Positions 41,268 to 63,994 of a stretch of DNA of 64,000 bases are shown piece by piece. The position numbers were made by a program, and so were the translations under genes. Source of the stretch: an archaeon (GTDB lineage Archaea > Nanobdellota > Nanobdellia > Woesearchaeales > UBA9642); contig JAGVGF010000002.1 of NCBI GenBank assembly GCA_020057295.1, forward strand, positions 24,776-88,775. The letters are read 5' to 3'. Every line of letters begins with the position of its first letter. Position 1 is the stretch's first letter. The notes below the pieces were generated by a model. That model had not been told where the DNA came from, ran no database searches, and saw only the letters and a list, made by a program, of their open reading frames with translations.

Positions 41268-43628
41268 TTACTTTCTGCCTCTACGTTTCTGTTTAATAAA
41301 TGCTGCAATGTATATTAGTACTAATATTATTAAGAATATCGCTAAATTAACGTACCAGCAGTATACATTGTATAATTGTGTGAATGATTTTCTTGGAATA
41401 TTCTTTACGACTAATGTAAATTCTGGTGATGAAGTTTTGCCGCCTTGAGGATCATATGCTGTTATCTTAGCATATTCTACACCACTCCAACCACTATTTG
41501 GATAGAATGTTACTTGTTTACCTTCGATTATGGCCTTGATATTTTTTATACCGCTAACATTATACTTTAATGTAGCATTATCGGGATCATAAAAGAATTT
41601 AGAAATGTCTAATACATACTTGCTATCTTGTAGCCATTCATAACGTAATTCTGAAGCGTCATTAGTCAAATTATATACTTGTGATTCGGTTTTAGGCAAT
41701 CCGCTAAATGTTAATACGAATACTAAACCCATTAAAAATACTACTACTAAAAGTATTAATATAGGTATTTTTGCTTTGAATCTGTTGCTGAATTTGTAAG
41801 GATAGTGTGGACCGACAATTAAGAATATTACAATCAATAGAATTACTAATAATATCGCTAATAGTTCGTATAGGCTGAATTGTCTGCATACTGTGCCATA
41901 AGCTAAGTATTCGAATGTTTTAGTAATTATATTCTTATCTTTTAATTTTACAATAGTTTCTTGTGTGTATGTCACGCCGCTTGAATCTTCAATTATTAAT
42001 TGTCCGCCATAATAACTATCATTCTTATTTGCAGCATTAACTTTTAATGTAACATACTTGGTTTCTGACTTGTTAATATTTACTAATGTGTCATCTAATG
42101 CTAAAATATTAGAACCATTCCATGATACTATATATTTTCCATTAACTAAACCTTTGTTAGTTATAGGCATATTTACTTGTGTAGTTTGATAATTAATTTG
42201 ATAATTTGTCTTATCAACATTTACGACATGACATGTTGGTAAGTCATAGCTTTTAATCCAGAATTCATTATATTCATTAATTCCGTTCTTTATTGTTGCT
42301 TTAACTTTGATATCGTAATCTTTATTCTCTTCAGGTCCTGTTATTAATACTTTGAAAAATCCTTTCTTACCAGATTCTACAGTAACACTATTTTTAGATA
42401 ATTTTACTGATGATGGAGCATTTTCTAAACTCAATGCATATGTTTCAGTATATTTTCCATTATTTAATATTTCACCATCATAACTATACGTGTATGATTC
42501 ACAAGTTCTTAATGGAGCATTTTTATTATTATCATAATCATATAATATCACTTCGTGTTCATAACATGGAAGGAAATTTATTAATAATTTAGAATTCTTA
42601 ACTATATCGCCAAGTTCTGGTGTAACTTCAATCTTTACTTCTGCTGTCTTATATTCTGTTCGATATATTGTTGAATCCACAACTACATAAAATTTCTTGG
42701 ACTCTCCAGGTTTTAATGTGAAAGCGTTATTATCTAATTTGCTTAATCTTGCATATTTTGGCAATCCTTTAACTTCTGCTGTATAATTATTAGTTATACT
42801 TCCCTTGTTAGTTATTGTTACAGGAATCTCATTATACTGTATTCTATTACATACATCAACATTTACTGTGTTGTTAGAATCGCTTCCTATAGTTACATCA
42901 TAATCATAATTTCTTAAAATATTTAATGGTGCATTAACGCTTGCTGATAATTCATTCTTCAAGGAATGTGCGGTGAATATTATATCTTTTGAACCATATA
43001 CGTTACAATCAAATTTTGCTGTTGCACTAATCTTTCCAATCTGATTAGGCTCTAATGTAAAACTTTTAGCGTTATAGACTATATTATTATCATAATTACT
43101 CTCTAAATTGTACTCTTCAGAAAATGAGCCTGTGTTCTTTACTGATAGCTCAAAATTTTTTGATTGACAAGGATTAATATCAGTACTATAATTTCCTATA
43201 GCTAACTCAATATTTTGACATCTATCTCTTTGTAATTCCTTTACAATTGTCTTCTGCATGCCAAGATTTGATGTGACTGTAATTTTAAATTCATCAGATC
43301 CTGTGCTACAGTCAGAAGTTATGTATAAGTAAACATTTCTTGATTGTCCAGGTGCTAACTCGAAATTATTTTCAGAAGTCATAACTTGTGCATGAATTTT
43401 ATTGGTTGATATGGCAAATACTGCTGGCCATGTTCCAGTATTAGTTAGGCTGATAGTATCATATTTTGTAGAACAACTACATATACTAACTTTATCATAA
43501 GAACTAGTTAATGTGAAGTCTTTACTAGGAGTGTACGTATTGACATCAATCACACCAAATACGCTATTTGATAGCATTAAGAATGCCAGTAATATAATAA
43601 ATATTGAGGATAACTTCATAGTAACCAT
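41268..43628 (-). CDS. large exported cell-surface protein with C-terminal membrane anchor
   Basis: 786 aa. N-terminal signal-like MVTMKLSSIFIILLAFLMLSNSVFG, Asn/Thr/Ser-rich beta-type sequence, hydrophobic segments near residues 570-640 and at the extreme C-terminus followed by KQKRRGRK. Confidence 0.5.
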   Translation of the reverse strand: MVTMKLSSIFIILLAFLMLSNSVFGVIDVNTYTPSKDFTLTSSYDKVSICSCSTKYDTISLTNTGTWPAVFAISTNKIHAQVMTSENNFELAPGQSRNVYLYITSDCSTGSDEFKITVTSNLGMQKTIVKELQRDRCQNIELAIGNYSTDINPCQSKNFELSVKNTGSFSEEYNLESNYDNNIVYNAKSFTLEPNQIGKISATAKFDCNVYGSKDIIFTAHSLKNELSASVNAPLNILRNYDYDVTIGSDSNNTVNVDVCNRIQYNEIPVTITNKGSITNNYTAEVKGLPKYARLSKLDNNAFTLKPGESKKFYVVVDSTIYRTEYKTAEVKIEVTPELGDIVKNSKLLINFLPCYEHEVILYDYDNNKNAPLRTCESYTYSYDGEILNNGKYTETYALSLENAPSSVKLSKNSVTVESGKKGFFKVLITGPEENKDYDIKVKATIKNGINEYNEFWIKSYDLPTCHVVNVDKTNYQINYQTTQVNMPITNKGLVNGKYIVSWNGSNILALDDTLVNINKSETKYVTLKVNAANKNDSYYGGQLIIEDSSGVTYTQETIVKLKDKNIITKTFEYLAYGTVCRQFSLYELLAILLVILLIVIFLIVGPHYPYKFSNRFKAKIPILILLVVVFLMGLVFVLTFSGLPKTESQVYNLTNDASELRYEWLQDSKYVLDISKFFYDPDNATLKYNVSGIKNIKAIIEGKQVTFYPNSGWSGVEYAKITAYDPQGGKTSSPEFTLVVKNIPRKSFTQLYNVYCWYVNLAIFLIILVLIYIAAFIKQKRRGRK

Positions 43629-43673
43629 CTCGATAATATTGTTGATATATTAAAAAATAATAAATAAAAATTT

Positions 43674-44930
43674 TTAGTAGTATGGTTCTGAATCGTTTTT
43701 ATTATCTCTCATCTTATTGAATCCAATTACTAATCCAACGATTATTAAGATAACAACTAATACAACTAAACCTACTTCTAATGCTTGCTTGAATAATGAC
43801 CAGTCGCTAGAGCCACTCTTAGTTATTTTAGCAACTAATGGTATGCTCTTAGTGTCTCCGTCTGCATCGATGTTTAATGTGAATGCCTTATCACCAAGTT
43901 CTGCATTTGAATTACTACTAACGTATAAGTATGCTGTCTTTGATTGACCTGCTGGTATTACAACAACAGATGATGGATCTATTCTAGTAGTTGCCCAAGT
44001 TGATGCTCCTGTAACACTTAAAGTGTAAGTCTTACTATTTGCTCCAACATTGTTTATCACGATAGGATATACAACACTAGTTCCTTGAGCTACTTCCTGC
44101 ATATTTGGTACATTAACAATTGTATTACCTTGACCTGTTGTAGTGCTTGCGCCACAAGTGTCTCCTTTACTTACTTTTATACTGCCAGTAGTATCGGTCT
44201 CACTATACTCATCAAACTCTACTAAGATATTTACATCATATGTTCCTGCTTTTGTACACTCAGGAATTCTTAATAATAATTCTTCAAAAGTTCTAGATTG
44301 ATCAGGATCTATCTCGTCCATGTATTCAGAAACTTTAATGTTTAAATCTGGAACGCTCATAGTTACTTTTAAGTCCTTTATTTTGCTGTCCCAAAGATTA
44401 TGTACTTTTACTTTTCCTGTAAATGCTCTTCCAGCAACAACTTCTTGAGGGTCTAAACTGAAATCTTTAACTTCAACAGCCATACTTCTTTTTATTCCTT
44501 TTAGATATAATTGGTATGTCTTGTCAACTGATGTTCCATTTCTGTCATCTGCTCTTATTCTTAATTTGAAATAATCTTTATCTATTTTTGTTGGAACTTC
44601 TAAGTCCAAGTCAAAGCAATCGCTGTGTCCGTTTAATAAATCGAATGAATCAGTCATGTCGGTAATTTTTGCACTTTCTTGATTTGCATATGCATAACCT
44701 GAAATGTCAGCGTATATTTGTGCGTTAGTTACATCAGCTAATGCTTGTACACATACGTATATGTTTAATTTATCTCCTCTCTTATAGTCTTGGCTAACGC
44801 TTGATGTGCCGCTGTCTAATAGTGAGTGACTATTTACTTCAAGACTTGTAACCTGAAGATTAACTGCACTTACTAATCCAGTGCCTACAATAACGAATGC
44901 TAGAAACAATACGAACAATTTTGCTCTCAT
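43674..44930 (-). CDS. exported surface protein with C-terminal TM anchor
   Basis: 418 aa. Signal peptide MRAKLFVLFLAFVIVGTGLVSA, C-terminal LVVLVVILIIVGLVIGF then a charged tail. Confidence 0.5.
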   Translation of the reverse strand: MRAKLFVLFLAFVIVGTGLVSAVNLQVTSLEVNSHSLLDSGTSSVSQDYKRGDKLNIYVCVQALADVTNAQIYADISGYAYANQESAKITDMTDSFDLLNGHSDCFDLDLEVPTKIDKDYFKLRIRADDRNGTSVDKTYQLYLKGIKRSMAVEVKDFSLDPQEVVAGRAFTGKVKVHNLWDSKIKDLKVTMSVPDLNIKVSEYMDEIDPDQSRTFEELLLRIPECTKAGTYDVNILVEFDEYSETDTTGSIKVSKGDTCGASTTTGQGNTIVNVPNMQEVAQGTSVVYPIVINNVGANSKTYTLSVTGASTWATTRIDPSSVVVIPAGQSKTAYLYVSSNSNAELGDKAFTLNIDADGDTKSIPLVAKITKSGSSDWSLFKQALEVGLVVLVVILIIVGLVIGFNKMRDNKNDSEPYY

Positions 44931-45045
44931 TTTATTACCCCCAAACTGATTTCTGAATATGACTGTTATCGAATAGATAAACGTTATTATTTATAAATGT
45001 TTCGTTTCTTTTACTACTCGATAGTAAAACATTTTTCATGTTTTT

Positions 45046-47568
45046 TTACTTTTTTATGACTAGTTCCCTATATTTTATTCTTCGAACTTCGTCATTACCA
45101 ACACTGATTTTAACATAATAGGTTCCAGGTGTTATACTATACAATGGTATTGTAACAGTTTCTGCCTGTGTTCCACCACGATTCAAATCGAATGATGTTG
45201 ATCTTCCTTCAATTCCTAATTCCGGAATACTCACTACAACTCTGGAATTTTTCAACTTTGAACCATACTCATTCTTAACTTCAACATTTACTGTTAAATC
45301 ATCATTAGGCTTCAAAATATCATAACCATCCATGCCATAAATTAATAAGTGTGTTATCAATAATCCGCCTTTAGACTTATCAATTATTACTACTGGTTTT
45401 GGCATACTAGAACCATCTAATATTGTTGCTGTAGTTCTTCCAGAATTAATAGAACCATTAGCGTAGTAAATTGTTAATGTTACTGTATAAACATTTATTG
45501 CTGTATATGTGTGTTGAATTGTTGGTGTTGTTGTATCTGCGGTTTTACCGTCTCCAAAATTCCATAAGTATCGAACTATTTGTCCAGTACTTTTTGAAGC
45601 ATCAAATGTTACTGGCTGATTAACATATCCGTTGTATGGTCCACCCATATCAAATATTAATGTTTGATTAGTAGTTCCATTACTTGTTGTTCTAACTATT
45701 CCGCAATTTGCTAATACTACATTATTATTTGCATCAGTTACTGTTACACTTGAACTAAATGTTCCAACATTATTATATATGTGTGTAACGCTATTTAATG
45801 TATTACTACTTACGCCACCGTCACCAAATGACCATATGTAATTATATGGTGCTGTTCCGCCGTTAACAAGTGCGTTCATACTAACGCTTAATGGAATATT
45901 ACCGTTTGTTGGTGATGCAGTACATGCAACAGTAAACGTTGCGTTTGTATTATTTACAATTCCAGTAATTACGTGAACATTAATTCTTGTAGTACTATAA
46001 TCATTGTCTAAATCACTGGCTCTTAAATCAATTATATCATCACCTAAATTATTTCCGGTAATTGCTAGAACGTTTCCTGAATTTATTACTGTTGTAATTC
46101 TAAACGGATTATTAGTTATACTCCATCTTAATGTATTATCTTCTAAATCATGACCATAACTGTTTAATCCTATATATGATGTTTGTCCAACATTAATATA
46201 CACATCAGGTATGTTGCTTATTGTTGGCTTATTATTTAATATGATTAAATTAACTTGTGCTTGTCCGCCTGTTAATCCTGTAAAGTTAAATGCGAATGCA
46301 AAAACATTACTATCTCCTAAAAACTCATGTCTTAATGGTATCATATCTAATTTATAATAATACCAGTTACCATTATAGCTTAACCTGCTCAAATCAACTC
46401 TACCGCCTGGTAGACTGACTAGTGCTGCTGCTGTAACAATATCGCTTGTAACAAATGTGTTACTTATAGGATCGTAAACTTGAAATTTTGCATATAATGA
46501 TTCTCCTCTATAGAATGTGTTATCTGGATAGAAAAAATTACTATCATTATATGTTGCTAAATTAATAACATTATATCTTTGAGCGTATACATCAAATGTG
46601 TATGATGCACCATTGCCTGTATAATTAATATATCCTGGTGCACTTGCTGTAGCATAAACTGTGTATGTTCCAACACCACTTACAGGACTAGTTACTGTAC
46701 ATCCGCCACTAAGCGTATTTGTTTTACATGTTCCGAATAATCTTCCGTCGCTGTATGCAATTTTTACATCAACATTTCCTGGAACTAATCCGTTACTTGA
46801 TGTAACCATTACACTGCATGATTGATTGTTATTGTTTACAACTCTTGGAAAACAATTTATTGATTGTATACTTAATGTTGGTGGAACAACTGTAATTGCT
46901 CCAACTCCACAATTAGCTGTTACACTTACACTATTACTGTCTACAACTCTTAATGTAGGATTAAATGTTCCTATATTATATGTGTGTGTTTGAGTATTTG
47001 TTAAAGAATTTGTTGATACACTAAATATACTTGAACCATCATTATAATTCCAATTATATGTATATGGCGCATTTCCTCCGGTTACTGTTCCAGTAAAATC
47101 TACATTTAATGGAGCATATCCGTTAGTTGGCACTGCATTACATGAAACTGCAAATGTTGAAACTGCTGTAGGTAAAACATTTAATATTAATCTAAAACTA
47201 TCAGAACTAAATCCGTCAACAGATTTTATGTAAACATAATATGTTCCATTTGTATTTCCATATTGTGTTGGTGTAACATTTATGTAGCCATTAGCGCCAT
47301 TGCCTACTGTTGCTGTTGTTGGAATATAAGTAAATATAGGGTTTGTTAATCCTTGCTTGTATAATGTAATATTGTATTGTCCGCCTCTTGTACTAATTGC
47401 ATGAACTCTATATTCAAATTCTGCAGTTTGACCATTATTAATATTTAACACTACATCATTATTACTAGTCCATGTAGCTTGATTGATTGATGCCATTACT
47501 GGACTAACACATACAATGCTTAAAATGAACAATAATACAATTATCCAACTTTTCATTTTATCCCTCAT
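45046..47568 (-). CDS. large secreted protein with multiple PKD-like repeats
   Basis: 840 aa. Signal peptide. At least three repeats with the PKD hallmark (NVDFTGTVTGGNAPYTYNWNYNDGS; SVSMNALVNGGTAPYNYIWSFGDGG; VTFDASKSTGQIVRYLWNFGDGK). Confidence 0.55.
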   Translation of the reverse strand: MRDKMKSWIIVLLFILSIVCVSPVMASINQATWTSNNDVVLNINNGQTAEFEYRVHAISTRGGQYNITLYKQGLTNPIFTYIPTTATVGNGANGYINVTPTQYGNTNGTYYVYIKSVDGFSSDSFRLILNVLPTAVSTFAVSCNAVPTNGYAPLNVDFTGTVTGGNAPYTYNWNYNDGSSIFSVSTNSLTNTQTHTYNIGTFNPTLRVVDSNSVSVTANCGVGAITVVPPTLSIQSINCFPRVVNNNNQSCSVMVTSSNGLVPGNVDVKIAYSDGRLFGTCKTNTLSGGCTVTSPVSGVGTYTVYATASAPGYINYTGNGASYTFDVYAQRYNVINLATYNDSNFFYPDNTFYRGESLYAKFQVYDPISNTFVTSDIVTAAALVSLPGGRVDLSRLSYNGNWYYYKLDMIPLRHEFLGDSNVFAFAFNFTGLTGGQAQVNLIILNNKPTISNIPDVYINVGQTSYIGLNSYGHDLEDNTLRWSITNNPFRITTVINSGNVLAITGNNLGDDIIDLRASDLDNDYSTTRINVHVITGIVNNTNATFTVACTASPTNGNIPLSVSMNALVNGGTAPYNYIWSFGDGGVSSNTLNSVTHIYNNVGTFSSSVTVTDANNNVVLANCGIVRTTSNGTTNQTLIFDMGGPYNGYVNQPVTFDASKSTGQIVRYLWNFGDGKTADTTTPTIQHTYTAINVYTVTLTIYYANGSINSGRTTATILDGSSMPKPVVIIDKSKGGLLITHLLIYGMDGYDILKPNDDLTVNVEVKNEYGSKLKNSRVVVSIPELGIEGRSTSFDLNRGGTQAETVTIPLYSITPGTYYVKISVGNDEVRRIKYRELVIKK

Positions 47569-47588
47569 CTAAAGTATATCTTAATAAT

Positions 47589-48932
47589 CTAAAATTTGTA
47601 TATTAATGATGCATTAACGCCGTTTTTTGTTCCGTCATTTGGATTAATATCTCCTGTTACATCAAGATATAATCCATCAATTCCTTTAATTCCGCCTAAT
47701 CTTAAACCTACAGGTATACTGAAATATGAATTACTTCCTTCTGTAGTTGGTTGTGTTACTGGTGGTTTTGAAAGAGGATTATTTTGTGCTCTATCTCTTA
47801 TAGTTTCTGTAACTGTACTTTCTAATGTTGAGTTACTACTATTATATTGAGCGCCAACTCCTACTTTTAAGTTGTTTCCTCCTAGCCAAGCCATTACTCT
47901 TGTTTTCCATCCAGTATATTTCTCTGTGAATTTTTGTACAGTAGATCCAAATGTTGAATTCCATGTACTATCATAATCTTTATTTGAATTACCTATCAAA
48001 TTAGTTTTAGCAACTGTTCCTTCTAAATCCCAATGTGAATCAGGGCTATATCCTAATGTTAATCCTGTAACATTTCCTTTATTTGTTGAACTTCCATCTT
48101 TTCCAAATAATAATCCTGCATACCATTTTGATTTTGTTGTGTCAGGAACATCTGTTGTATCAGTTCTAGCTGTACTATTTCCTGATGTTCTATTACTTAC
48201 TGCAGAACTATCTGTTAATCCTGAAGCAATTAATGCTGTACTGTCAGTAACTCCTGGAATGTACAACATGAATTTTACTTCCTCGCCATCATATCTTTTT
48301 ATTACTGTTCTACCATTCTGTACTATAGTATCAGTATATGCTGGAGTTCTACGTATTGCTCCAAATTGTAATCCGCGATGTCCTGCTCTTCCAACGGTTA
48401 ATGCATCTGCAGCTGTTTCTCTACCATCATAATTATTGTTGCCTAAATGTGTTGAAATATCTTTTAGCAATGTTGTATCTCTTGGCATTCTTCCCATTTG
48501 TGTACTATCCGCAAGATCTTTACGCCATTGCGCTAATGCTCTTTCATCAGCTATGATTACTTTATCGTTAGGATTTTTCTTTTTTAATGCAGCAATATTT
48601 CTCTTTTCATAATTTATTAATCCTTCAGGAGTCATTAACACCCATTGTCCATGAGGTGCGTTAGGATATGTACTTCCATAATTTAATTCTTTAGCTTCTC
48701 TGCCCGGAATTACAGTAACTCTGTCCGGTACTGCAATACTTCGACCAGGAATGAATGCTGTACTAGTATCTTTGGTAATCCTGTTGTGTTGTAATGGTGT
48801 TCTTGATTGTGCATCTAATTCGGTGCTTAACATGTAACTTCCAATTAGAAATATTCCTGCTGCTTTAAGTGCATCAATTAAATCTGTTTTAAGACTAGAA
48901 TAATTATAGTTATTTATATTTGTAAAGTTCAT
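47589..48932 (-). CDS. secreted beta-rich protein with OMP-like C-terminal signature (ends ...ASLIYKF)
   Basis: 447 aa. Internal hydrophobic signal-like segment near residue 20-35. C-terminal third alternates polar and hydrophobic residues and ends in Phe. Confidence 0.4.
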   Translation of the reverse strand: MNFTNINNYNYSSLKTDLIDALKAAGIFLIGSYMLSTELDAQSRTPLQHNRITKDTSTAFIPGRSIAVPDRVTVIPGREAKELNYGSTYPNAPHGQWVLMTPEGLINYEKRNIAALKKKNPNDKVIIADERALAQWRKDLADSTQMGRMPRDTTLLKDISTHLGNNNYDGRETAADALTVGRAGHRGLQFGAIRRTPAYTDTIVQNGRTVIKRYDGEEVKFMLYIPGVTDSTALIASGLTDSSAVSNRTSGNSTARTDTTDVPDTTKSKWYAGLLFGKDGSSTNKGNVTGLTLGYSPDSHWDLEGTVAKTNLIGNSNKDYDSTWNSTFGSTVQKFTEKYTGWKTRVMAWLGGNNLKVGVGAQYNSSNSTLESTVTETIRDRAQNNPLSKPPVTQPTTEGSNSYFSIPVGLRLGGIKGIDGLYLDVTGDINPNDGTKNGVNASLIYKF

Positions 48933-49042
48933 TTTAATCCCCCAAAAATATGTACTTATGAAGGTAAAATCAGAATAATATATAAATGTTTCGGTAATTT
49001 GTTATTACGCAGTGAATACAAAATATTTTGTTTTTTTAACTT

Positions 49043-49402
49043 TTATATATTTATCAATACTATTCCTAATATTATAAAACATATCCCTATCCATTTATAA
49101 TTATTCATACGCTCTTTCAAATAATATATTGATAAGATTGTAACAAAAATGTATGACATAGAACTTAAAGGATATACTACTGATAAATTTCCAAGTTTTA
49201 ATGCTAACACGAAAAATATTCCAGATATTCCATATAATGCTATTCCACAGATTATATAATAATTTTTTATGATTTTAATTATTCCGTTAATTGTTATTTC
49301 TAATGTAAATTTTTTTGATCCTTTTTTTAGTAATGTTGTTCCTATAGCATTACCTATTGTTGCTATTAATACAAATAATATTATAACTACTGAATTATTC
49401 AT
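49043..49402 (-). CDS. EamA/SMR-like 4-TM small membrane protein (ArnE/ArnF-like), partner B
   Basis: 119 aa, four TM helices, ALKLGNLSVVYP motif. Overlaps partner A by 4 nt. Confidence 0.5.
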   Translation of the reverse strand: MNNSVVIILFVLIATIGNAIGTTLLKKGSKKFTLEITINGIIKIIKNYYIICGIALYGISGIFFVLALKLGNLSVVYPLSSMSYIFVTILSIYYLKERMNNYKWIGICFIILGIVLINI

Positions 49403-54965: not shown

Positions 54966-54992
54966 TTGATAGTTTATTATTCGAGGTGTCAC

Positions 54993-56406: not shown

Positions 56407-56471
56407 TTTTTCTTGAGTTAAAATTAGCAAATTATATAAATGCACATTCTTTCTCGTAGAGTGGTGGTATA

Positions 56472-56816
56472 ATGAATATAGTTCAAATGCTAATTATAAT
56501 TTTTGCTGTATATGCTATAGTTAAAGTAGTTCTTAGACTGAGAGATAAATCATTAAGTCCTGTAGAATCTTTTTTATGGGCTATACTTTGGGTTGGAGTG
56601 ATATTCGCTGCCATATTCCCTAACACACTCATAGAACTTTCTAATGATTTAGGTTTGGGAAAAACATTGAATATGTTAGTATATCTTAGCATATTATTAT
56701 TGTTCTATTTAGTGTTTAGATTGTATAGTGCGCTTGACAAGTTAGATCATAGATTCAACACGCTTGTCAAAGAATTAAGTATTGAACGTACGATTAAACG
56801 TAAAAAAAGTAAGTGA
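56472..56816 (+). CDS. small GT2-associated membrane protein (DUF2304-like)
   Basis: 114 aa, 3 TM helices then a basic C-terminus. Genes of this size and topology commonly follow Dpm1-like GT2 genes. Confidence 0.4.
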   Translation: MNIVQMLIIIFAVYAIVKVVLRLRDKSLSPVESFLWAILWVGVIFAAIFPNTLIELSNDLGLGKTLNMLVYLSILLLFYLVFRLYSALDKLDHRFNTLVKELSIERTIKRKKSK

Positions 56817-56838
56817 AAAATAGGTTTGAAGAAATAAA

Positions 56839-57933
56839 ATGAAAATTTTAATTATATGTCCTGATTGGTTTCCGAATATTTCAGGTTTTGGAATATCTGC
56901 ATATGAGTTCTCTCAAGAATTACTTAAAGATAAGCATGAAGTAACAATAATAACATCTTCTCAGAAAAATCTTGATAAAAAAGGATTAAACGTTGTGAGT
57001 GTTAAAATGTTGTTTAACCCGTTAGGCAGAAATCCTATAGTTTTCGGATTGTACAATAAAATTAAGAATGTCGATTATGATGTAATATTGTTGTATAGTT
57101 ATATGTATGAAATGAATGTGCGTGTGGCATTATACAGAAAATTAGGTTTAATAAAAAAACCTGTTATTTTAATGTACAGAGGCAGTTTAGAAAATGATGT
57201 ACTGCCCTTCTTGAAAACATCGACAAAGATAGCGAAAAAAACATATGATGCAACACTTGCTAGAATGTTATTCAAAAATGTTGATTATACTATTTCTAAT
57301 TCTAAACCAACATTAAAGCTAATTAACGAAAAATATCTTGTCTCACATAAAAAAATGTCTTATATTTCTAGCGGCATACCTGTTATGGATTTTAAGAGAA
57401 GTAAGCTAAGTAATAAACGTGTATTATTTAATGGAAGGTTAATAGAAAATAAGGGTATAAACTTTTTTGGAAAAATATTAGAAACTATTCCAAAAGATTG
57501 GAAGTTTACAATTATTGGAGATGGTCCATTAGAGAAAGAAATTTTGAGATTAAAAAAGAAATATAAAAATATTGAATATTTAGGCAAGGTTTCACACGCT
57601 GTTGCTAAAGAAATGTACTCAAAGGCAGACATACTAATATTACCAACATTTGCTGAAGGATCGCCGCGTGTAGTTCTAGAAGCATGTGCATCGGGAGTTC
57701 CATCGATAGCATTTAACGTCGGGGATGTTCCAACAATACTTGATAACAATAAGAATGGTTATTGTATAGAAAGATATAACATAGAAAAATTTACAGAAAA
57801 ATTAGAATTATTGATAAAAAATAGGGAATTAAGAAAAAAATTAGGCGATAATGCCTATACTTTTGCAAGAAAAAATTTAGACTGGAAAATTGTTTATAAA
57901 AAAATGCTTAAAGAAATTAGAGGTTTGTTATGA
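56839..57933 (+). CDS. family 4 (GT-B) glycosyltransferase
   Basis: 364 aa. C-terminal EGSPRVVLEACASGVPSIA (E-x7-E-type GT4 motif). Confidence 0.7.
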   Translation: MKILIICPDWFPNISGFGISAYEFSQELLKDKHEVTIITSSQKNLDKKGLNVVSVKMLFNPLGRNPIVFGLYNKIKNVDYDVILLYSYMYEMNVRVALYRKLGLIKKPVILMYRGSLENDVLPFLKTSTKIAKKTYDATLARMLFKNVDYTISNSKPTLKLINEKYLVSHKKMSYISSGIPVMDFKRSKLSNKRVLFNGRLIENKGINFFGKILETIPKDWKFTIIGDGPLEKEILRLKKKYKNIEYLGKVSHAVAKEMYSKADILILPTFAEGSPRVVLEACASGVPSIAFNVGDVPTILDNNKNGYCIERYNIEKFTEKLELLIKNRELRKKLGDNAYTFARKNLDWKIVYKKMLKEIRGLL

Positions 57934-59129
57934 AGAAAAAAATATTCTTCCTAATAAATTCTCTTGAGATAGGAGGATCTGAAAGAGTAATATTAGAATT
58001 ATACAATCGTTTATCGAACAAATATGATGTAAAATTGATAACACTAAAAAATGTTACAAATTATGATTCTAAAATCAAAACAATTTCTTTAAGTAAAGTT
58101 ACAAAAACATCTAGAATGCTGGTTCATATTTCTTCTTATGTAAAAAAATTAAAAAAAATTATTACAGAAGAAAAACCTGATGTTTTAGTAAGTTTTTTGG
58201 AACTGAGTAACTTAGTCAATATATTTGCATGTAAAAATACAAAAACTAAATGTGTTATATCTGTGAGATCTACTCTCTCTGAAGTTTATGATAGAGGAAT
58301 ATATGGTAAAACATTTACTTATTTGATAAAAAAATTTTATCCGAAAGCCGACATAATCATAACTAATTCTAAATACTCAAAAATTGATTTAGTAAAAAGT
58401 TTTAACATTCCAGAAAAAAAAATATCGACGGTTTACAATCCATTAAACATAGAAAATGTTCAAAAATCTTCAATCGAAAAAATAGAGCGGAAATATGCTT
58501 CAATATTCGATGGCAAATCTAAGATATTGATTACCGTCGGTAGATTAATTGATGCGAAAGCACATCCAAATTTATTGCGTGTATTCTATAATTTAAAAAA
58601 AGAAGTAAAAAATGTGAAACTAGTAATCGTTGGAGATGGTCCATGGATGCAGAAACTCAAAGACATTATTAAAGAATTAGAATTAGAATCAGATGTATTC
58701 TTACTTGGCAGCCAGAAAAACCCTTACAAATATGTGAAAAAATCAGATATTTTCGTATATTCTTCAGTATATGAAGGTTTTCCTAATGCATTAATCGAAG
58801 GAATGGCTTGTGGAGTTCCTGTGATTTCTACCGATTGTAGATCTGGACCAAGAGAAATATTAGCTCCAGAAACCAATGTTCTAACGCAGGCCAAAAAATT
58901 AGAATTTGTCAAATATGGTTTATTATCTCCTGTTTTCAAGAAAGAACTAAACACAGACATTCACGCTTCCCTAAGCAAAGAGGAAGAGATATTTATGAGT
59001 GGCATAAAAACTCTTTTAAATAGTAAGAAATTATCAAAATCGTACGCTATTAAGGGTGAACTTAGGATTAAAGATTTTAATAGCGAAAATATGGCTAAAA
59101 ATTTTTTAAAAACGATTAAGGTGAATTGA
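57930..59129 (+). CDS. family 4 (GT-B) glycosyltransferase
   Basis: 399 aa. YEGFPNALIEGMACGVPVISTD GT4 motif. Start overlaps the upstream stop (ATGA). Confidence 0.7.
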   Translation: MKKKIFFLINSLEIGGSERVILELYNRLSNKYDVKLITLKNVTNYDSKIKTISLSKVTKTSRMLVHISSYVKKLKKIITEEKPDVLVSFLELSNLVNIFACKNTKTKCVISVRSTLSEVYDRGIYGKTFTYLIKKFYPKADIIITNSKYSKIDLVKSFNIPEKKISTVYNPLNIENVQKSSIEKIERKYASIFDGKSKILITVGRLIDAKAHPNLLRVFYNLKKEVKNVKLVIVGDGPWMQKLKDIIKELELESDVFLLGSQKNPYKYVKKSDIFVYSSVYEGFPNALIEGMACGVPVISTDCRSGPREILAPETNVLTQAKKLEFVKYGLLSPVFKKELNTDIHASLSKEEEIFMSGIKTLLNSKKLSKSYAIKGELRIKDFNSENMAKNFLKTIKVN

Positions 59130-60200
59130 GTGATTCCAAAAGATGTTGAATATTTAAAATGTATAAATTGTGGGCACGATTTGCTATTAAAAGTCTTCGA
59201 AACAGAAAAAGATGAATGTGTAGAAGGAAAATTATCCTGCAAACATTGTAACGAAGAGTGGCCCGTAATCAATGCAATACCGCGTTTGTTGCCTAAAAAC
59301 TTACTTAAAAATTTAGTTTTGCCTTATCATAAAGATTTCTTTGATAAATATCATTTTGATGTATCAGAAAAGAACAGATCCGATAAGTCCAGTAATGATG
59401 ATAAGTTAAAAAGTAAGACTGCTCAAAGTTTTGGTTTCGAGTGGTTAAAATATCCTAAAATATTAAACCAATTTGAGAAAGATTGGGAGAGATACTTTCA
59501 TCCGTTCATAACAAGAAAAGATATTAAAGGAAGTGTTGTAGCAGATTTTGGATGTGGGATGGCTAAACATGGATATTTTATTGGAAAATATGCTTCCAAA
59601 AAATATATTGGATTAGATTTAAGTGAGGCTACTGAGGCAGCATATAGAAATACTAAAAAATTCAAACCATTAATAGTACAGGCAGACATTTATCATATTC
59701 CGTTAAAAGGTGAAAAGATTGATATTTGTTATTCTATTGGTGTATTACATCATCTTCCAAATCCTGAAAATGGCTTCATAAGTATTATAAAGAATATGCG
59801 CAAAGGTTCTAAAATATTTATGTGGGTATACGGGCAAAGAGGAAATTCTCGTGCTCTATATTTATACAATCCAATACGTTTTGTGACAACTAGAATGAAT
59901 AGAAAATTTTTATATAATTTGTGTCACATTCCAGCTATTGCAGTACATTCATTAAACAGTGTATCTAAAGGATTATCAAAGATAGGATTAAAAAAATCTG
60001 CTAGATTAATTCCATTCAGTTATTATACAGATTTCCCGTACACTTTCAAGGTAAGCGACACTTTTGATACATTAGGAACACCAACTCAAATATACTATAA
60101 AATGAGTGAGATTGATAGTTGGTTCAAACATTCAAAATTAAAAAAATATCAATTAGAATATGATGTTGTACAAGGAATAAAAGGATATGGTGTAAAATAA
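59130..60200 (+). CDS. SAM-dependent methyltransferase with N-terminal Trm112-like zinc ribbon (GTG start)
   Basis: 356 aa. CINCGHDL...CKHCNEEWPVINAIPRLLP zinc ribbon followed by DFGCGMAKHGYF (motif I) and later motifs. Confidence 0.55.
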   Translation: MIPKDVEYLKCINCGHDLLLKVFETEKDECVEGKLSCKHCNEEWPVINAIPRLLPKNLLKNLVLPYHKDFFDKYHFDVSEKNRSDKSSNDDKLKSKTAQSFGFEWLKYPKILNQFEKDWERYFHPFITRKDIKGSVVADFGCGMAKHGYFIGKYASKKYIGLDLSEATEAAYRNTKKFKPLIVQADIYHIPLKGEKIDICYSIGVLHHLPNPENGFISIIKNMRKGSKIFMWVYGQRGNSRALYLYNPIRFVTTRMNRKFLYNLCHIPAIAVHSLNSVSKGLSKIGLKKSARLIPFSYYTDFPYTFKVSDTFDTLGTPTQIYYKMSEIDSWFKHSKLKKYQLEYDVVQGIKGYGVK

Positions 60201-60201
60201 T

Positions 60202-62088
60202 ATGTGCGGAATAAACGGATTTAATTGGGAAGATAAGAATTTAATTAGTTCTATGAATAAAAACATTAAACATAGAGGTCCAGACGATCAAGGAACATTT
60301 GTGAGTAATAGATTAAGTCTAGCTCAAGTAAGATTATCGATTATAGATTTGACGCCAGCAGGTCATAATCCTATGTTTTATGATAAAAAAACAGGTGCAT
60401 TTTCAGAAAGACATCAAAAACATTTAATGAATGATGCTAAATTAGGAATAGTTTTTAATGGAGAAATATACAATTATCAAGATATTAAATCTGAACTAGA
60501 ATTAAAAGGATACGCTTTTTCAACAAAATGTGACACCGAAGTCATACTAGCAAGTTATCTCGAGTGGGGATATGATTGTGTTAAGCATTTTAATGGAATG
60601 TGGGCATTCTGTATATATGATTCTAAGAAGAAAATCTTATTTTGTTCAAGAGATAGACTTGGAGTAAAACCATTCTATTACTATTATAAGAACGGAAAAT
60701 TCATATTCAGTTCAGAACTCAAGGGAATATTAGCACACAAGAATTTAAAGATTAACACTAAAGAAAATATTAACAAAGATGCAGTACAATTATACTTCTC
60801 ATTAGGATTTGTACCATCACCATATTCCATATATCATGACGTATTTAAACTTGAAGCTAGACAGAATTTGATATTTGATCTTTCATCTAAAAAAATTAAG
60901 AGACAATGGTATTATTATGAGATTCCAAAACTAAATCCTGTTCATGATAAGAAGAAATTGATAGAAGAAGGTCGAGAAATATTAAGAGATGCTGTCAGAA
61001 TAAGAATTATTGCAGATGTTCCTGTAGGAGCATTCTTATCAGGAGGATTGGATAGTTCAACCGTAGTTGGTGTGATGAAAGATTTTACTGAATTAAAAAA
61101 ATTACACACATTTTCCATAGGTTTTGAAGGAAAATACGATGAAACAAAATATATTAATATAGTAAAAAACTATTTTGGAACAAAACACCATCATTATTAT
61201 TTCAAAGAGAAAGATTTTGAAAATTTGATAGATACATACTCGTTTATGTATGATGAACCATTTTGGGATTATTCAGGATTTCCAACATACAAAGTTTCAG
61301 AATTAGCAAAAAAGCATGTAACAGTGTGTTTAAGCGGTGATGGTGGGGATGAAATATTTGGAGGATATAATACTCATGTTGCAGGATATCGTATGGATTT
61401 AATATATAAATTACCAAGATTTTTACGTTTTATTGGTTCTAAAATACCTGCAAGGAAGAATTTAAACGGCTTTGCTTCAGCGTATTTATTAAAAGAAGCA
61501 TTTAAAGCATCCCTTAAAGATAAAAAATATTTTTATGCTACAGCAATATCAGAAGACAGTATACGACCAGAAGTATATAAAAAAATAACAATTCAAAAAT
61601 TAGACTATGCATTAAAAAAAGGAAACAATAAACTTTCAGAAGCTTTACGAATTTATGATCTAATGTCCAATTCTTTACAGGATAATTTTTTGGTTAAGGT
61701 AGATCGCGCATCGATGATGCACGCACTTGAAGTAAGGAGTCCTTTTTTAGATTATAGATTTGTAGAATTTGCTCAAAAAATACCTTCAGAATGGAAACAA
61801 AATTCTATTAAAACAAAGATTCTCATGAGAGAAATAATTAAAGATATTGTTCCAAAAGAAATAGTAAATCGTGGAAAACAAGGTTTTAGCCCGCCAATCG
61901 ATAAATGGATACTACAAAAGAAATATTCTAAAGATTTTAAAAAATATATCGAGCAAATAAAATCTATTGACAGCGATATTTATTTATTCTATAAGAATAA
62001 AGTTTTTAAAAATGATAATGTATTATACACTAACTACAGAATAAGATTATATCTATTCGGCTTATGGAGTAAAAAATGGTTAAAGTAG
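60202..62088 (+). CDS. asnB: asparagine synthetase-type glutamine amidotransferase (AsnB/WbpS-like)
   Basis: 628 aa. N-terminal MCGI nucleophile, FNGEIYNY, and the PP-loop FLSGGLDSS. Confidence 0.8.
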   Translation: MCGINGFNWEDKNLISSMNKNIKHRGPDDQGTFVSNRLSLAQVRLSIIDLTPAGHNPMFYDKKTGAFSERHQKHLMNDAKLGIVFNGEIYNYQDIKSELELKGYAFSTKCDTEVILASYLEWGYDCVKHFNGMWAFCIYDSKKKILFCSRDRLGVKPFYYYYKNGKFIFSSELKGILAHKNLKINTKENINKDAVQLYFSLGFVPSPYSIYHDVFKLEARQNLIFDLSSKKIKRQWYYYEIPKLNPVHDKKKLIEEGREILRDAVRIRIIADVPVGAFLSGGLDSSTVVGVMKDFTELKKLHTFSIGFEGKYDETKYINIVKNYFGTKHHHYYFKEKDFENLIDTYSFMYDEPFWDYSGFPTYKVSELAKKHVTVCLSGDGGDEIFGGYNTHVAGYRMDLIYKLPRFLRFIGSKIPARKNLNGFASAYLLKEAFKASLKDKKYFYATAISEDSIRPEVYKKITIQKLDYALKKGNNKLSEALRIYDLMSNSLQDNFLVKVDRASMMHALEVRSPFLDYRFVEFAQKIPSEWKQNSIKTKILMREIIKDIVPKEIVNRGKQGFSPPIDKWILQKKYSKDFKKYIEQIKSIDSDIYLFYKNKVFKNDNVLYTNYRIRLYLFGLWSKKWLK

Positions 62089-62915
62089 AATTGTATGAAC
62101 ATACCTATAAGCGAAAGAAACACTTTAGTTTTGGACAAAATTGGAAAGAGTATTTGAATTCTCTAAATGAAGATAAAATTAACGAAGCAAAGAAATCTCT
62201 TACCAGATTTTTGGGCGGAAAAGATAAAATACGAAATAAAACTTTTGTAGATATAGGTTGTGGCAGCGGATTATTCTCTCTTGCAGCGTTTCTACTGGGT
62301 GCAAAAAAAGTAGTAAGTGTAGATATAGATGATGCTTCTTTATACTGTGTAAACACACTTAGAAAAAAATATTCGTCTAATCCGGATAAATGGGTTGTAA
62401 AAAAGGGTTCTGCATTAGATAAATCATTTATGAAAAGACTAGGAAAATTTGACATAGTGTATAGTTGGGGAGTGCTTCATCATACAGGAAATATGTATCA
62501 GGCATTCGATAATCTAACAATGCTTTCTCATGAAAAAAGTATAATCTATTTGGCAATATATAATAATAATAGAATATTTTTTGAAGGAACATCCCCTTTC
62601 TGGCTTAAAATCAAAAAGATTTATAATTCCTCAAATAAAATTATTAAAAAATGTATTTATTATATATATACATTATATCTCATATTTGGAATAACTGTAT
62701 CAGGAAAAAATACTATAAAATATATTAAGGATTATCATACATTACGTGGAATGAACTTTTTTACTGATATAAAAGACTGGCTTGGCGGATATCCTTACGA
62801 ATATGCGTCAACGCAAGAAATTACTGATTATTTCAAAAATCTAGGTTATATTGCTAAAAAAATCAGCAAAGCAAGATCATTAGGATGCAATGAATATTTG
62901 ATTGGTCGTCTTTAA
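62076..62915 (+). CDS. class I SAM-dependent methyltransferase
   Basis: 279 aa. FVDIGCGSGLFSL (motif I), VYSWGVLHH. Confidence 0.55.
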   Translation: MVKVELYEHTYKRKKHFSFGQNWKEYLNSLNEDKINEAKKSLTRFLGGKDKIRNKTFVDIGCGSGLFSLAAFLLGAKKVVSVDIDDASLYCVNTLRKKYSSNPDKWVVKKGSALDKSFMKRLGKFDIVYSWGVLHHTGNMYQAFDNLTMLSHEKSIIYLAIYNNNRIFFEGTSPFWLKIKKIYNSSNKIIKKCIYYIYTLYLIFGITVSGKNTIKYIKDYHTLRGMNFFTDIKDWLGGYPYEYASTQEITDYFKNLGYIAKKISKARSLGCNEYLIGRL

Positions 62916-62932
62916 GTACGAATTGTATAATC

Positions 62933-63994
62933 TTATTCTTGATTATAATTATCTGGAGAAGTTACTGAACGTATACTCTTAGAATTTATGTACGTTTGCA
63001 TAGATTCTTTTTTATTATCATACAATGATTTATTTCTTGTTATTACACACGTGATAAAGAATAGAAACTTTCTAATAAATCTAGGTATAATAAAAGGTAT
63101 GGATAAAAATAATATTTTTATAGAATGTACTTTTTTATTTAATTTGAATACATAAAGCATGTTTTCCCTATAATTACCAGAAAAAGTCGTAGCGATATAA
63201 GATTCGCCAAACACTTCAATCGATACTCCGCTATATTTGAGTTTTGATAAGTTTTTTCCCGTTTGTTTTTCTATCGTGTCAATTAGATCGTAGTATCCCT
63301 CTACAAATATTTTAAGATGATCTATGTTAGTATAAACTAGATTATTATTTTTTGTATTATCTGTAATAGCGTGATTAAATAGATAAAAATTTATATTATT
63401 TTCAATTGATGCTAATATAGCAATATGCAGATGTGGCCAAATATCGCTAAATTTAGGATATTTTTTAATTATTTTCTTAGAATATGTAGCTGGTATAATT
63501 ATATTACTTAATAATCCCATGCTTGTCAGATATCTTTTGAACATAGAATCATTAATACTAATATTATAAGAGCCTTCTTTTAATCCTTTATAAAAAGAGA
63601 AAGATTTACCATCTTTTGATATCGAGTTAAGCAGGAATATTTTTTTTCTTTCGGAAATTAGATTCATTATTTGCGGAAGCTTGTCTTTTATTATTAAATC
63701 GTCATCACCCAAAAACCATATAAATTCTCCTCGAGCTTTCTCTATTATCTTTAAAATATTTCCCTTACATTTAAGGTTGATCTTGTTTCTATGATATCTT
63801 ATCTTTTTTTCTTTTGCATATTTTTTTTTATATAATTCAAAAGTTCCGTCATCAGAAGCATTATCTGAAATCAGAATTTCGATATCATTAAAATTAAATT
63901 TTTTAATTTGATTTAATGTATTATCTACCAACCTTTCTAAATATTTTCTCCTATTCCATGTCGGAATTCCTATCGTTAATTTAATATTTTTCAT
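62933..63994 (-). CDS. family 2 glycosyltransferase
   Basis: 353 aa. IGIPTWNRRKYL..., ISDNASDDGT, and a DDD acidic motif. Confidence 0.65.
   Translation of the reverse strand: MKNIKLTIGIPTWNRRKYLERLVDNTLNQIKKFNFNDIEILISDNASDDGTFELYKKKYAKEKKIRYHRNKINLKCKGNILKIIEKARGEFIWFLGDDDLIIKDKLPQIMNLISERKKIFLLNSISKDGKSFSFYKGLKEGSYNISINDSMFKRYLTSMGLLSNIIIPATYSKKIIKKYPKFSDIWPHLHIAILASIENNINFYLFNHAITDNTKNNNLVYTNIDHLKIFVEGYYDLIDTIEKQTGKNLSKLKYSGVSIEVFGESYIATTFSGNYRENMLYVFKLNKKVHSIKILFLSIPFIIPRFIRKFLFFITCVITRNKSLYDNKKESMQTYINSKSIRSVTSPDNYNQE

Follow-up and report, generated by a model that had tools for sequence, protein, structure and literature searches.

The locus described here occupies positions 41268-63994 of a 64-kb stretch of DNA (the window) from a very small archaeon of symbiotic type belonging to the Woesearchaeales (contig JAGVGF010000002.1 of GenBank assembly GCA_020057295.1). 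It brings together a set of glycosylation genes and the genes for four large surface proteins of 447, 840, 418 and 786 amino acids (aa), which we call the cassette (Table 1). A first-pass annotation of this DNA had described an 11-gene glycan-tailoring cluster next to four surface-protein genes. Every open reading frame (ORF) that it named is present, with exactly the coordinates and sizes it gave, and Pfam and NCBIfam searches with curated cut-offs, by which the domains were assigned, support the AglB protein, the three family 2 and two family 4 glycosyltransferases (GT2, GT4), the three S-adenosylmethionine (SAM) methyltransferases, the AsnB-type enzyme and the PKD repeats. The count of eleven has to be corrected, because the part of the locus outside the cassette consists of 14 genes; those that had not been named encode a PMT_2 glycosyltransferase of type C (GT-C), two 119-aa EamA half-transporters and a DUF2304 protein.

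Gene content and layout of the locus

The genes are arranged in two blocks that diverge from a 151-bp region (54095-54245). The plus-strand block, at 54246-62915, contains nine tightly packed genes and is followed by one further GT2 gene on the opposite strand. The start codon of that gene is only 6 nt from the end of the window, so that the cluster may continue beyond it. For the minus-strand block we infer three transcription units, the first comprising the GT-C, AglB and EamA genes, the second the 447-aa and 840-aa genes and the third the 418-aa and 786-aa genes.

Table 1. Genes and putative expression signals of the locus, with their positions in the window
Feature	Position	Strand	Evidence
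786-aa polytopic envelope protein, last cassette gene	41268-43628	-	FixG_C Ig-like, E=1.4e-14
418-aa membrane-anchored surface protein	43674-44930	-	NF033506, 97.4 bits, below cut-off
BRE/TATA box GAAACATTTATAAA and GGGGG Shine-Dalgarno before the 418-aa gene	44990-45003; 44938-44942	-	motif match
840-aa secreted PKD/Ig-like protein	45046-47568	-	PKD_4, E=1.9e-26, three stretches
447-aa secreted beta-rich protein, first cassette gene	47589-48932	-	ORF, family profile
BRE/TATA box GAAACATTTATATA and GGGGG Shine-Dalgarno before the 447-aa gene	48979-48992; 48939-48943	-	motif match
Two overlapping 119-aa EamA half-transporters, 4 TM segments each	49043-49402, 49399-49758	-	EamA, E=7.6e-12 and 1.8e-6
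AglB, STT3-type oligosaccharyltransferase, 972 aa	49763-52681	-	PF02516, E=4.6e-30
PMT_2/ArnT-like GT-C, 454 aa	52730-54094	-	PMT_2, E=2.2e-15
BRE/TATA-like box before the GT-C gene	54124-54137	-	one mismatch to motif
GT2, 239 aa	54246-54965	+	Glycos_transf_2, E=2.7e-16
Class-I SAM methyltransferase, 224 aa	54966-55640	+	Methyltransf_11, E=1.6e-10
Polyprenyl-phosphate GT2 (GT2_223), 223 aa	55735-56406	+	PpgS, E=6.1e-45; AglJ, E=2.3e-35
DUF2304 membrane protein, 114 aa	56472-56816	+	DUF2304, E=6.3e-23
GT4, 364 aa	56839-57933	+	Glycos_transf_1, E=5.6e-32
GT4, 399 aa	57930-59129	+	Glycos_transf_1, E=4.6e-34
SAM methyltransferase with N-terminal CxxC...CxxC zinc ribbon, 356 aa	59130-60200	+	Methyltransf_11, E=2.8e-11
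AsnB-type glutamine-dependent amidotransferase, 628 aa	60202-62088	+	Asn_synthase, E=2.1e-83; GATase_7, E=2.9e-39
Third SAM methyltransferase, 279 aa	62076-62915	+	several Methyltransf families, E about 1e-9
GT2 (GT2_353), 353 aa	62933-63994	-	Glycos_transf_2, E=8.9e-24

The G+C content is even over the region (0.27-0.33), so there is no compositional mark of an island, and no integrase was seen. To the left of the cassette lie genes for a class-I tRNA synthetase of the Tyr/Trp type, a haloacid dehalogenase (HAD)-type hydrolase, an Obg-like GTPase and an AAA protein resembling replication factor C. This housekeeping flank is syntenic, in part or in full, in three related loci (L084, L085 and L086; compared loci and contigs are denoted here by L numbers), and we concluded that the locus is chromosomal. 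In view of the flat G+C content and these flanks, the idea of a mobile or horizontally acquired island was rejected.

The immediate left border of the cassette holds only a tRNA-Trp gene (41045-41118, minus strand) and, abutting it, a free-standing LAGLIDADG ORF of 213 aa (40400-41041, plus strand). In two distant relatives, L061 and L062, a homologue of this ORF (49-51% identity) adjoins that of the 786-aa gene, so that the ORF may have been conserved at this site and need not have invaded it recently.

Linkage of the cassette to AglB in related species

The proteins of the window were compared by BLASTP with all ORFs from 80 AglB loci of related species, namely the best 80 of 472 AglB relatives in a species-representative genome collection (34-57% AglB identity), and a hidden Markov model of the 418-aa family was run over the same ORFs. 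Full flanks of ±10 kb are available for 31 of these loci and shorter ones for the others. At least one cassette gene was found within the available AglB flanks of 24 of the 80 loci, and of 13 of the 31 with full flanks, where about 2% would be expected by chance according to our own estimate, which assumes a neighbourhood of 20 kb and a genome size of about 1 Mb. The proximity is thus some 15-20 times the chance expectation, and it extends across 35% to 57% AglB identity. The linkage of surface-protein genes with glycosylation genes, which the first-pass annotation had read from this one locus, therefore recurs in related species.

Two arrangements of the cassette were observed. It lies downstream of AglB and in the same orientation in the present locus and in L001, L006, L019, L030, L058 and L086, and upstream of AglB and divergent from it in L043, L050, L060-62, L067, L069, L071 and L073; both arrangements persist down to 35% AglB identity. 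The order and strand of the 840-, 418- and 786-aa genes are always kept among the compared loci, and orthologues of the 786-aa gene follow the 418-aa gene in L001, L019, L058, L061, L062, L067, L069, L073 and L084-L087. Scattering of the orthologues in relatives, unlinked to glycosylation genes, would have spoken against the linkage; the latter proved frequent but not obligatory, as the cassettes of L084 and L085 have no AglB within 10 kb. The cassette of L087 adjoins an EamA pair, a DUF2304 gene, a GT2 gene and genes of the UbiA and PAP2 families, with no AglB in the 10 kb upstream, and in L006 and L017 a module of GT2, DUF2304 and EamA genes lies between AglB and the cassette.

The glycosylation genes differ much in how often they accompany AglB. 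Relatives of the GT2_223 gene are present in 53-54 of the 80 loci and adjoin AglB in 34; DUF2304 is present in 41, and the EamA pair in 27, in 10 of them directly after AglB. For the methyltransferases, AsnB, GT2_353 and GT-C, BLASTP detected relatives in no more than 3-5 of the 80 loci each (GT-C in 3), in agreement with the earlier expectation of a variable region, here as regards the tailoring genes and between species-level relatives.

The labels of the 80 best AglB relatives are mostly Woesearchaeota or Nanoarchaeota, and some are generic or evidently wrong. L005, L004, L012, L013 and others carry a Woesearchaeota-type AglB and cassette genes under names such as 'Alphaproteobacteria bacterium' or 'uncultured Methanosarcinales archaeon', which are probably binning or labelling errors in public records.

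The 418-, 840- and 786-aa proteins

As had been noted, Asn, Ser and Thr are plentiful in the four large proteins, where they make up 22.5-31.2% of the residues, compared with 16.0% in the 47 other ORFs of the window. Two of their other reported traits hold for part of the set only: the 786-, 418- and 840-aa proteins have classical hydrophobic signal peptides but the N-terminus of the 447-aa protein is atypical, and a C-terminal transmembrane (TM) anchor is present in the 418- and 786-aa proteins but absent from the 840- and 447-aa proteins.

The 418-aa gene is the most conserved of the locus. Identity to L001 amounts to 73% for its product, 56% for AglB, 55% for the 786-aa protein and 44% for the 840-aa protein, and none is detectable for the 447-aa protein. 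The protein consists of a signal peptide, three immunoglobulin (Ig)-like beta-sandwich domains, a C-terminal TM helix and a short cytoplasmic tail ending in YY; an AlphaFold2 model built on a 63-sequence alignment (predicted local distance difference test score, pLDDT, 86.9) likewise has three Ig-like sandwiches followed by a long TM helix. Its 111 homologues are uniform in length (mostly 415-450 aa), and many of them are named 'uncharacterized membrane protein' (JGI) and several 'putative S-layer protein' (NCBI; S-layer, surface layer). The best family match, to NF033506 'putative S-layer protein' (PACE-CTERM-PROT), reached 97.4 bits (E=8.5e-28), under the cut-off of 110 bits, and aligns residues 28-401 with positions 223-619 of the 627 of the profile, including the C-terminal TM region. 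PDB sequences were searched with the 418-, 447- and 786-aa proteins and yielded no meaningful match, and structure searches with the 418-aa protein found generic Ig-like arrays only; neither kind of search revealed sequence similarity or specific fold similarity to the S-layer proteins SlaA and SlaB.

Residues 377-418 of this protein, which form the TM helix and cytoplasmic tail, are unusually conserved, and the name of the NCBIfam family contains 'CTERM'. In the 63 sequences Y417 and Y418 are invariant and the TM helix is highly conserved. Such conservation points to a specific partner within the membrane or in the cytoplasm, or else to a sorting signal.

The 840-aa protein has three PKD repeats and Ig-like domains and no TM segment besides the signal peptide; its orthologues range from 840 to 1459 aa with shifting domain content. 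The 786-aa protein is composed of a signal peptide, an Ig-like ectodomain of about 550 aa, two TM segments (579-613 and 615-647), a second ectodomain of about 100 aa, a C-terminal TM segment (752-782) and a basic tail. By hhalign, the middle domain of the 418-aa protein is homologous to the C-terminal domain of the 840-aa protein (residues 756-829; probability 79%), and its third domain resembles residues 267-319 of the 786-aa protein (probability 50%), which indicates that the three proteins are built of related modules. Near its mature N-terminus the 786-aa protein carries a conserved Cys motif, CSCS. In L085 four small ORFs of 88-213 aa without Pfam match lie between the 840-like and 418-like genes (L085:7837-9827), a position that in the window is occupied by the promoter region.

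The 447-aa protein family

At the N-terminus of the 447-aa protein, a weak Ala/Gly-rich h-region, which ends in ..LDA|Q, comes after a long N-region. Searches with this protein found only itself among 5.8e9 clusters and two distant relatives among 1.8e9 representatives. In most cassette loci, the 840-aa homologue is immediately preceded by a gene for a protein of 400-700 aa with a mild Ala/Gly-rich signal peptide mostly ending in ..A-Q, a beta-rich C-terminal domain and often a terminal aromatic residue. When 8,070 ORFs were searched with a three-member profile, the three best matches were these positional analogues from L017, L006 and L001, and the enlarged profile matched those in L085 (E=6.5e-11) and L087 (E=1.8e-7). 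The analogues are thus homologous and not only positional equivalents, and the cassette comprises four genes of which the first is fast-evolving. A truncated relative, P0114, also adjoins a GT2_223 homologue. The ratio of nonsynonymous to synonymous substitutions (dN/dS) of 0.10 against the strain contig L082 (see below) indicates that the 447-aa ORF is a real gene. The family is restricted to Woesearchaeota.

The signal peptides of the family are unlike those of the other cassette proteins. In the members compared (window 47589-48932; L001:4818-6047; L084:3716-5320; L085:2801-4408; L087:4974-6437; L081:500-2177) the h-regions are rich in Ala, Gly and Thr and mostly end in A-Q (AFAQ, YAQ, ALAQ, DAQ), and to judge from these residues they look closer to those of bacteria, even of Bacteroidota, than to those of archaea. 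An aromatic residue is frequent at the very C-terminus, as in the beta-signal of bacterial outer-membrane proteins.

The C-terminal domain of about 180 aa weakly resembles outer-membrane beta-barrels of eight strands. PF13505 (OMP_b-brl) was the sole Pfam family to match more than one of 15 such domains; it matched three (those of the window, L019 and L071) with 17.2-22.9 bits, below the cut-off of 28.7 bits, the best E value being 1.8e-5, and most of the other weak matches were also to outer-membrane families. By eye, the last 185 residues of the 447-aa protein, which end in ..IYKF, can be divided into eight amphipathic strand-like segments, the connections between which are long and short in turn. 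The terminal aromatic (..IYKF, ..RINF, ..GVNF) and the A-Q signal ends are further points of likeness to OmpA/OmpX-like barrels. On the other hand, the family never exceeds the Pfam cut-off, and the host is an archaeon without known outer membrane or beta-barrel assembly (BAM) machinery. No match to E. coli OmpX was obtained when the family profile was aligned by hhalign with an approximate OmpX sequence, and a scan for amphipathic strands did not separate the family from Ig-like controls. The AlphaFold2 model, from a three-sequence alignment, had a pLDDT of 30 and was unusable.

It is conceivable, although we give the idea little credence, that the 447-aa family consists of abundant secreted proteins specific to Woesearchaeota with an OmpA/OmpX-like membrane beta-barrel of eight strands as C-terminal domain. 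This archaeal lineage is not known to possess an outer membrane. If such a barrel did exist, it could insert into the membrane of a host, possibly a bacterial outer membrane, or into an outer layer so far unseen, and the first gene of the envelope cassette would encode a device for contact, pore formation or lipid uptake. A kinship with aerolysin and Bin toxins was also considered; a six-domain profile matched a chain similar to Bin toxin A (8bad_A) with E=0.0022, but the match weakened to E=0.09 with eight members, and the kinship is unsupported.

Glycosylation and tailoring enzymes

AglB matched PF02516 with 105.9 bits (cut-off 24.5) and the STT3-PglB core with 33.4 bits (E=7.7e-8), and it has a catalytic motif, WWDFGHWF. 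Two more GT2, two GT4, the three methyltransferases and AsnB all lie at most 12 kb from it. The AsnB-type enzyme exceeded the TIGR01536 cut-off of 267 bits with 462 bits, and its N-terminal MCG provides the catalytic Cys2. AsnB homologues in glycan clusters make uronamides, and the enzyme here probably amidates a uronic-acid residue of the glycan. In the methyltransferase at 59130, a Trm112-like zinc ribbon had been proposed; the CxxC...CxxC pattern is there, but Pfam yielded only generic zinc-ribbon families at E of about 0.01 and no match to Trm112. A second protein with an Asn_synthase domain (303 aa, 33989-34900), without a glutamine amidotransferase domain, is encoded away from the glycan cluster.

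The sequence of the GT2_223 protein clearly places it in the PpgS/AglJ/AglK/DPM1-like type, with NCBIfam scores that are below the equivalog level (PpgS 153 bits, cut-off 370; AglJ 122 bits, cut-off 325). AglK/AglJ-type enzymes start the dolichol phosphate (Dol-P)-linked N-glycans of Euryarchaeota, and PpgS acts together with the small protein Rv3632 and a GT-C. The gene stands next to that of the DUF2304 protein (81.5 bits, cut-off 25.5), a family that we take to be that of Rv3632, and the same pairing recurs in many of the 80 loci. The GT-C matched PMT_2 with 57.7 bits (cut-off 26.1) and has about eight TM segments.

ArnE/ArnF flips undecaprenyl phosphate-linked 4-amino-4-deoxy-arabinose, and the architecture of the EamA pair, two adjacent genes of about 115 aa with four TM segments each, fits these proteins. 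The best NCBIfam scores were 42.5 bits for ArnF (cut-off 99) and 40.1 bits for ArnE (cut-off 92). To judge from family and position, the pair is the best candidate for the flippase of a dolichol-phosphate-linked sugar or glycan. An earlier comparative study of short archaeal EamA proteins saw no informative genomic context for them (PMC5898192). In L087 the genes for a PAP2 phosphatase and a UbiA prenyltransferase are found directly upstream of the EamA pair, DUF2304 and GT2 genes, by the cassette (L087:1471-4706), which hints that the metabolism of the polyprenyl-phosphate carrier is part of the same neighbourhood.

Expression signals

The motif GAAACATTTATAWA, which reads as a transcription factor B recognition element (BRE) and a TATA box, has exactly two exact copies in the 64 kb. 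Measured from its nearest base, one is 46 nt upstream of the start of the 447-aa gene and the other 59 nt upstream of that of the 418-aa gene. Copies with one mismatch precede the GT-C/AglB unit and the gene of a T2SSE ATPase, and the matches in total number six, compared with 1.6 expected. The 447-aa and 418-aa genes also share the sequence TTTGGGGG 7-8 nt before the ATG, while most genes of the window are without such a Shine-Dalgarno sequence. This GGGGG is kept before the 418-aa orthologue in L001, L006, L019, L084, L085, L086 and L087, and also in L082, and before the 447-like gene in L001, L019, L084, L085 and L087; it was looked for before the 840- and 786-like genes and not found there. 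Because of the exact BRE/TATA boxes and the rare, conserved GGGGG, we infer from sequence that the 447-840 and 418-786 units are highly expressed. In agreement with this, annotated S-layer genes are reported to rank with the most highly expressed genes in metagenome-assembled genomes of Woesearchaeota (PMC11606122).

Sequons and variation between strains

The four proteins had been proposed as the targets of the neighbouring machinery, and N-glycosylation sequons (N-x-S/T) were counted in them. The numbers observed, and in brackets those expected from the composition of each protein, were 9 (11.2) in the 786-aa, 2 (3.7) in the 418-aa, 12 (17.9) in the 840-aa and 9 (6.4) in the 447-aa protein, that is, about as composition predicts. 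Per 1000 residues there are 11.5, 4.8, 14.3 and 20.1 sequons, respectively, and 5.1 in the rest of the window. Among the orthologues of the 840-aa protein 212 were observed and 178 expected. The 418-aa family is depleted: 17 orthologues have 14 sequons where 41 are expected, and the median of its 63 members is one sequon per protein (range 0-5). The 418-aa protein is thus not an obvious heavy N-glycoprotein, and the likely N-glycoproteins encoded in cis are the 840-, 786- and 447-aa proteins, among which the 840-aa protein with its 12 sequons would be the best candidate.

Two 5.7-kb contigs from other samples, L082 and L083 (JGI 3300014208 and ENA ERZ27249449), are collinear with 43098-48847 at 96.2% nucleotide identity. 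Protein identity to them, with dN/dS against L082 in brackets, is 96.7-96.9% for the 447-aa (0.10), 96.5% for the 840-aa (0.12), 98.6% for the 418-aa (0.06) and 97.7% for the N-terminal part of the 786-aa protein (0.08). The rate of synonymous substitution (dS) is uniform over the cassette genes, at about 0.13. Collinearity, uniform dS and low dN/dS together are as expected of ordinary purifying selection, and nothing in the cassette suggests that genes were swapped. These results, and the higher conservation of the 418-aa protein than of AglB, do not bear out the hypervariability of the surface proteins between strains that had been suggested. A scan of metagenomes with the 399-aa GT4 for strain variants of the tailoring block returned distant relatives only, with about 31% identity over the full length and up to 40-43% over short segments. 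Among related species, it is in the tailoring genes and the 447-aa family that variation is seen, and not over the whole locus. Since the conserved anchored protein avoids sequons and the variable outer one carries them, the changeable face exposed by the cell would consist of the 840-aa protein, the 447-aa family and the glycan.

Proposed function of the locus

We consider it probable that this is a chromosomal cell-envelope locus of Woesearchaeota, a lineage of DPANN archaea, in which a glycosylation machinery is joined to a four-gene surface cassette that encodes the main envelope assembly. The plus-strand block would most likely assemble a Dol-P-linked glycan on the cytoplasmic side of the membrane. 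GT2_223 with DUF2304 may charge dolichol phosphate with the first sugar, as AglK/AglJ or PpgS/Rv3632 do, and the other GT2 and the two GT4 may extend the glycan; the three methyltransferases would O-methylate it and the AsnB-type enzyme would turn a uronic acid into an amide. For the step in which the lipid-linked sugar or glycan is flipped, the pair of half-size EamA proteins is the best candidate, AglB would move the glycan to the Asn of sequons outside the cell, and the GT-C probably adds a further sugar there from a flipped Dol-P-monosaccharide, as AglS does. In the assembly itself, the 418-aa protein would be a conserved, SlaB-like, membrane-anchored and stalk-like subunit poor in sequons, and the 840-aa protein a variable, unanchored, outward-facing and probably N-glycosylated subunit, which may dock on the 418-aa protein through the domain type that they share. 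The 786-aa protein may serve as a polytopic membrane base, and the 447-aa protein as a secreted beta-rich component that is probably abundant.

The 418-aa protein has a signal peptide and a C-terminal TM helix, and its BRE/TATA box and GGGGG hint at high expression. Several observations weigh against the interpretation as S-layer and glycosylation locus. The NF033506 score is below its cut-off and covers only part of the profile (positions 223-619), and modelling gave no confident fold for the 447-aa protein. The sequons of the 786-, 840- and 447-aa proteins are not enriched beyond composition, the 418-aa family has too few of them, and one of the two in the 418-aa protein lies in its cytoplasmic tail. 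The roles given to the flippase and the GT-C rest on family likeness below the equivalog cut-offs. Finally, 56 of the 80 loci are without a cassette gene in the available AglB flank, and the cassettes of L084 and L085 have no AglB within 10 kb.

A possible, though doubtful, alternative is that the cassette encodes not an S-layer but another envelope machine, such as a complex for host contact or adhesion or a membrane scaffold, and that it is tied to a Dol-P-monosaccharide module of GT2_223, DUF2304, EamA and GT-C and not to AglB; glycosylation would then be O-linked or lipid-linked, or the flipped Dol-P-sugar would have some other use. The cassette of L087, which is near the module but not near AglB, and the position of the module between AglB and the cassette in L006 and L017 speak for this, as do the polytopic 786-aa protein and the generic nature of the structural matches. 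The 418-aa protein is unusually conserved and poor in sequons for an S-layer glycoprotein, and its invariant YY end and conserved TM helix suggest specific partners. However, this protein resembles an NCBIfam family of putative S-layer proteins, the promoter and Shine-Dalgarno signals are strong, as is typical of very abundant proteins, and no other S-layer candidate was seen in the window. In addition, a relative of the GT-C was detected by BLAST in only 3 of the 80 loci, so that the monosaccharide route is not demonstrably conserved.

The model of the first-pass annotation, in which the machinery decorates its four neighbours, co-evolves with them and forms with them a region that is hypervariable as a whole between strains, is unlikely. 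In its favour are the linkage of cassette and AglB far above chance, the rarity of the tailoring genes (3-5 of 80 species-level loci) and the fast divergence of the 447-aa family and the 840-aa protein between species, and strain variability of aglB-centred clusters is documented in haloarchaea (PMC11407970). Against it stand the collinear contigs L082 and L083 with their uniform dS and low dN/dS, a 418-aa protein better conserved than AglB, sequons that are not enriched and in the 418-aa family depleted, the flat G+C content and the syntenic flanks. Quite improbable is a mere neighbourhood without functional coupling, a conserved chromosomal segment in a small and gene-dense genome: the many AglB loci without a cassette gene, the varying side and orientation of the cassette relative to AglB and the housekeeping flank that travels with it here and in L084, L085 and L086 would agree with it, but proximity is 15-20 times chance over the whole range of AglB identity and in two arrangements, and where AglB is absent the cassette is still flanked by GT2 and methyltransferase genes, by a sugar epimerase gene, or by an EamA pair and GT2.

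Relation to known systems

Returning to the envelope locus as the preferred interpretation, glycosylation clusters centred on aglB are well known in Archaea. Those of Euryarchaeota (aglB/aglJ/aglP/aglR/aglS of Haloferax volcanii, aglK/aglB of Methanococcus) share with the present locus AglB, a Dol-P-charging GT2 and soluble glycosyltransferases, as well as tailoring by a methyltransferase (compare AglP) and an amidotransferase-type enzyme, and their tailoring genes are variable too; the GT-C could act on a flipped Dol-P-sugar as AglS of Haloferax does. The present locus differs in that the putative flippase, a pair of half-size EamA proteins, resembles ArnE/ArnF and neither AglR/Wzx nor MprF, and in that a DUF2304 partner and a lineage-specific surface cassette are joined to it. 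In the polyprenyl-phosphate monosaccharide systems (ArnC/ArnE/ArnF/ArnT, GtrA/B/C and PpgS/Rv3632/Rv3779) there are four roles, GT2 synthase, DUF2304 helper, small-transporter flippase pair and GT-C, and candidates for all of them are present here. Unlike those systems, the locus is archaeal and would use dolichol phosphate, its NCBIfam scores are below the equivalog level, and the GT-C is not kept in most related loci.

Among S-layers, those of the SlaA/SlaB type in Sulfolobales and the candidates of Nanobdella aerobiophila are similar in that an unanchored, variable, Ig-rich protein with sequons (here the 840-aa protein) stands beside a smaller, conserved protein with a C-terminal TM helix (here the 418-aa protein); the 840- and the 418-aa protein both have signal peptides and signs of high expression. 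The locus differs in that the anchored protein is poor in sequons, that two extra conserved partners are present (the polytopic 786-aa and the beta-rich 447-aa protein) and that the 840- and 418-aa proteins belong to different transcription units. As regards NF033506, the first 220 or so profile positions are absent from the 418-aa protein, and the function of that family is itself only putative. We know of no cultured representative of the Woesearchaeota. For another DPANN archaeon, a pair of Ig-rich proteins, SlaA-like and unanchored and SlaB-like and C-terminally anchored, has been proposed, and for no member of the DPANN has an S-layer protein been established by experiment (bioRxiv 10.1101/2023.10.27.564410).

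The searchable literature appears to contain no description of the four-gene cassette with its fixed order, of its repeated association with AglB and with the GT2/DUF2304/EamA module, of the avoidance of sequons by the anchored protein or of the outer-membrane-barrel-like first gene. With its fixed order, strong expression signals and linkage to AglB, the cassette offers concrete candidates for envelope proteomics, for fitting in cryo-electron tomography and for enrichment based on antibodies or fluorescence in situ hybridization. The ArnE/ArnF-like pair next to AglB could supply the flippase that is missing from a minimal pathway of archaeal N-glycosylation, and its adjacency to AglB and to a Dol-P-sugar synthase with DUF2304 makes it a testable candidate for the flipping of lipid-linked glycans in Archaea.

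Other features of the window

Some further genes of the window lie outside the locus. A secretion or pilus ATPase of the T2SSE type (770 aa, 25450-27762) is followed by a 764-aa protein without Pfam match (27801-30095), and a BRE/TATA-like box with one mismatch precedes the ATPase gene within 25349-30095; the region may encode a unit for the assembly of a type IV pilus or of an archaellum-like structure, and thus a second surface system. At 11131-13281, a DsbA/thioredoxin-like protein of 322 aa is encoded beside a 367-aa protein with a weak match to GILT, the gamma-interferon-inducible lysosomal thiol reductase, and a GGGG Shine-Dalgarno sequence; the two may act in extracytoplasmic disulfide chemistry. 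At 15981-18600 and 22223-24655 there are a split transketolase, with its N- and C-terminal halves as separate genes, and an enzyme of the pyruvate phosphate dikinase/phosphoenolpyruvate synthase type. In L085 the transketolase halves are located directly beside the cassette.

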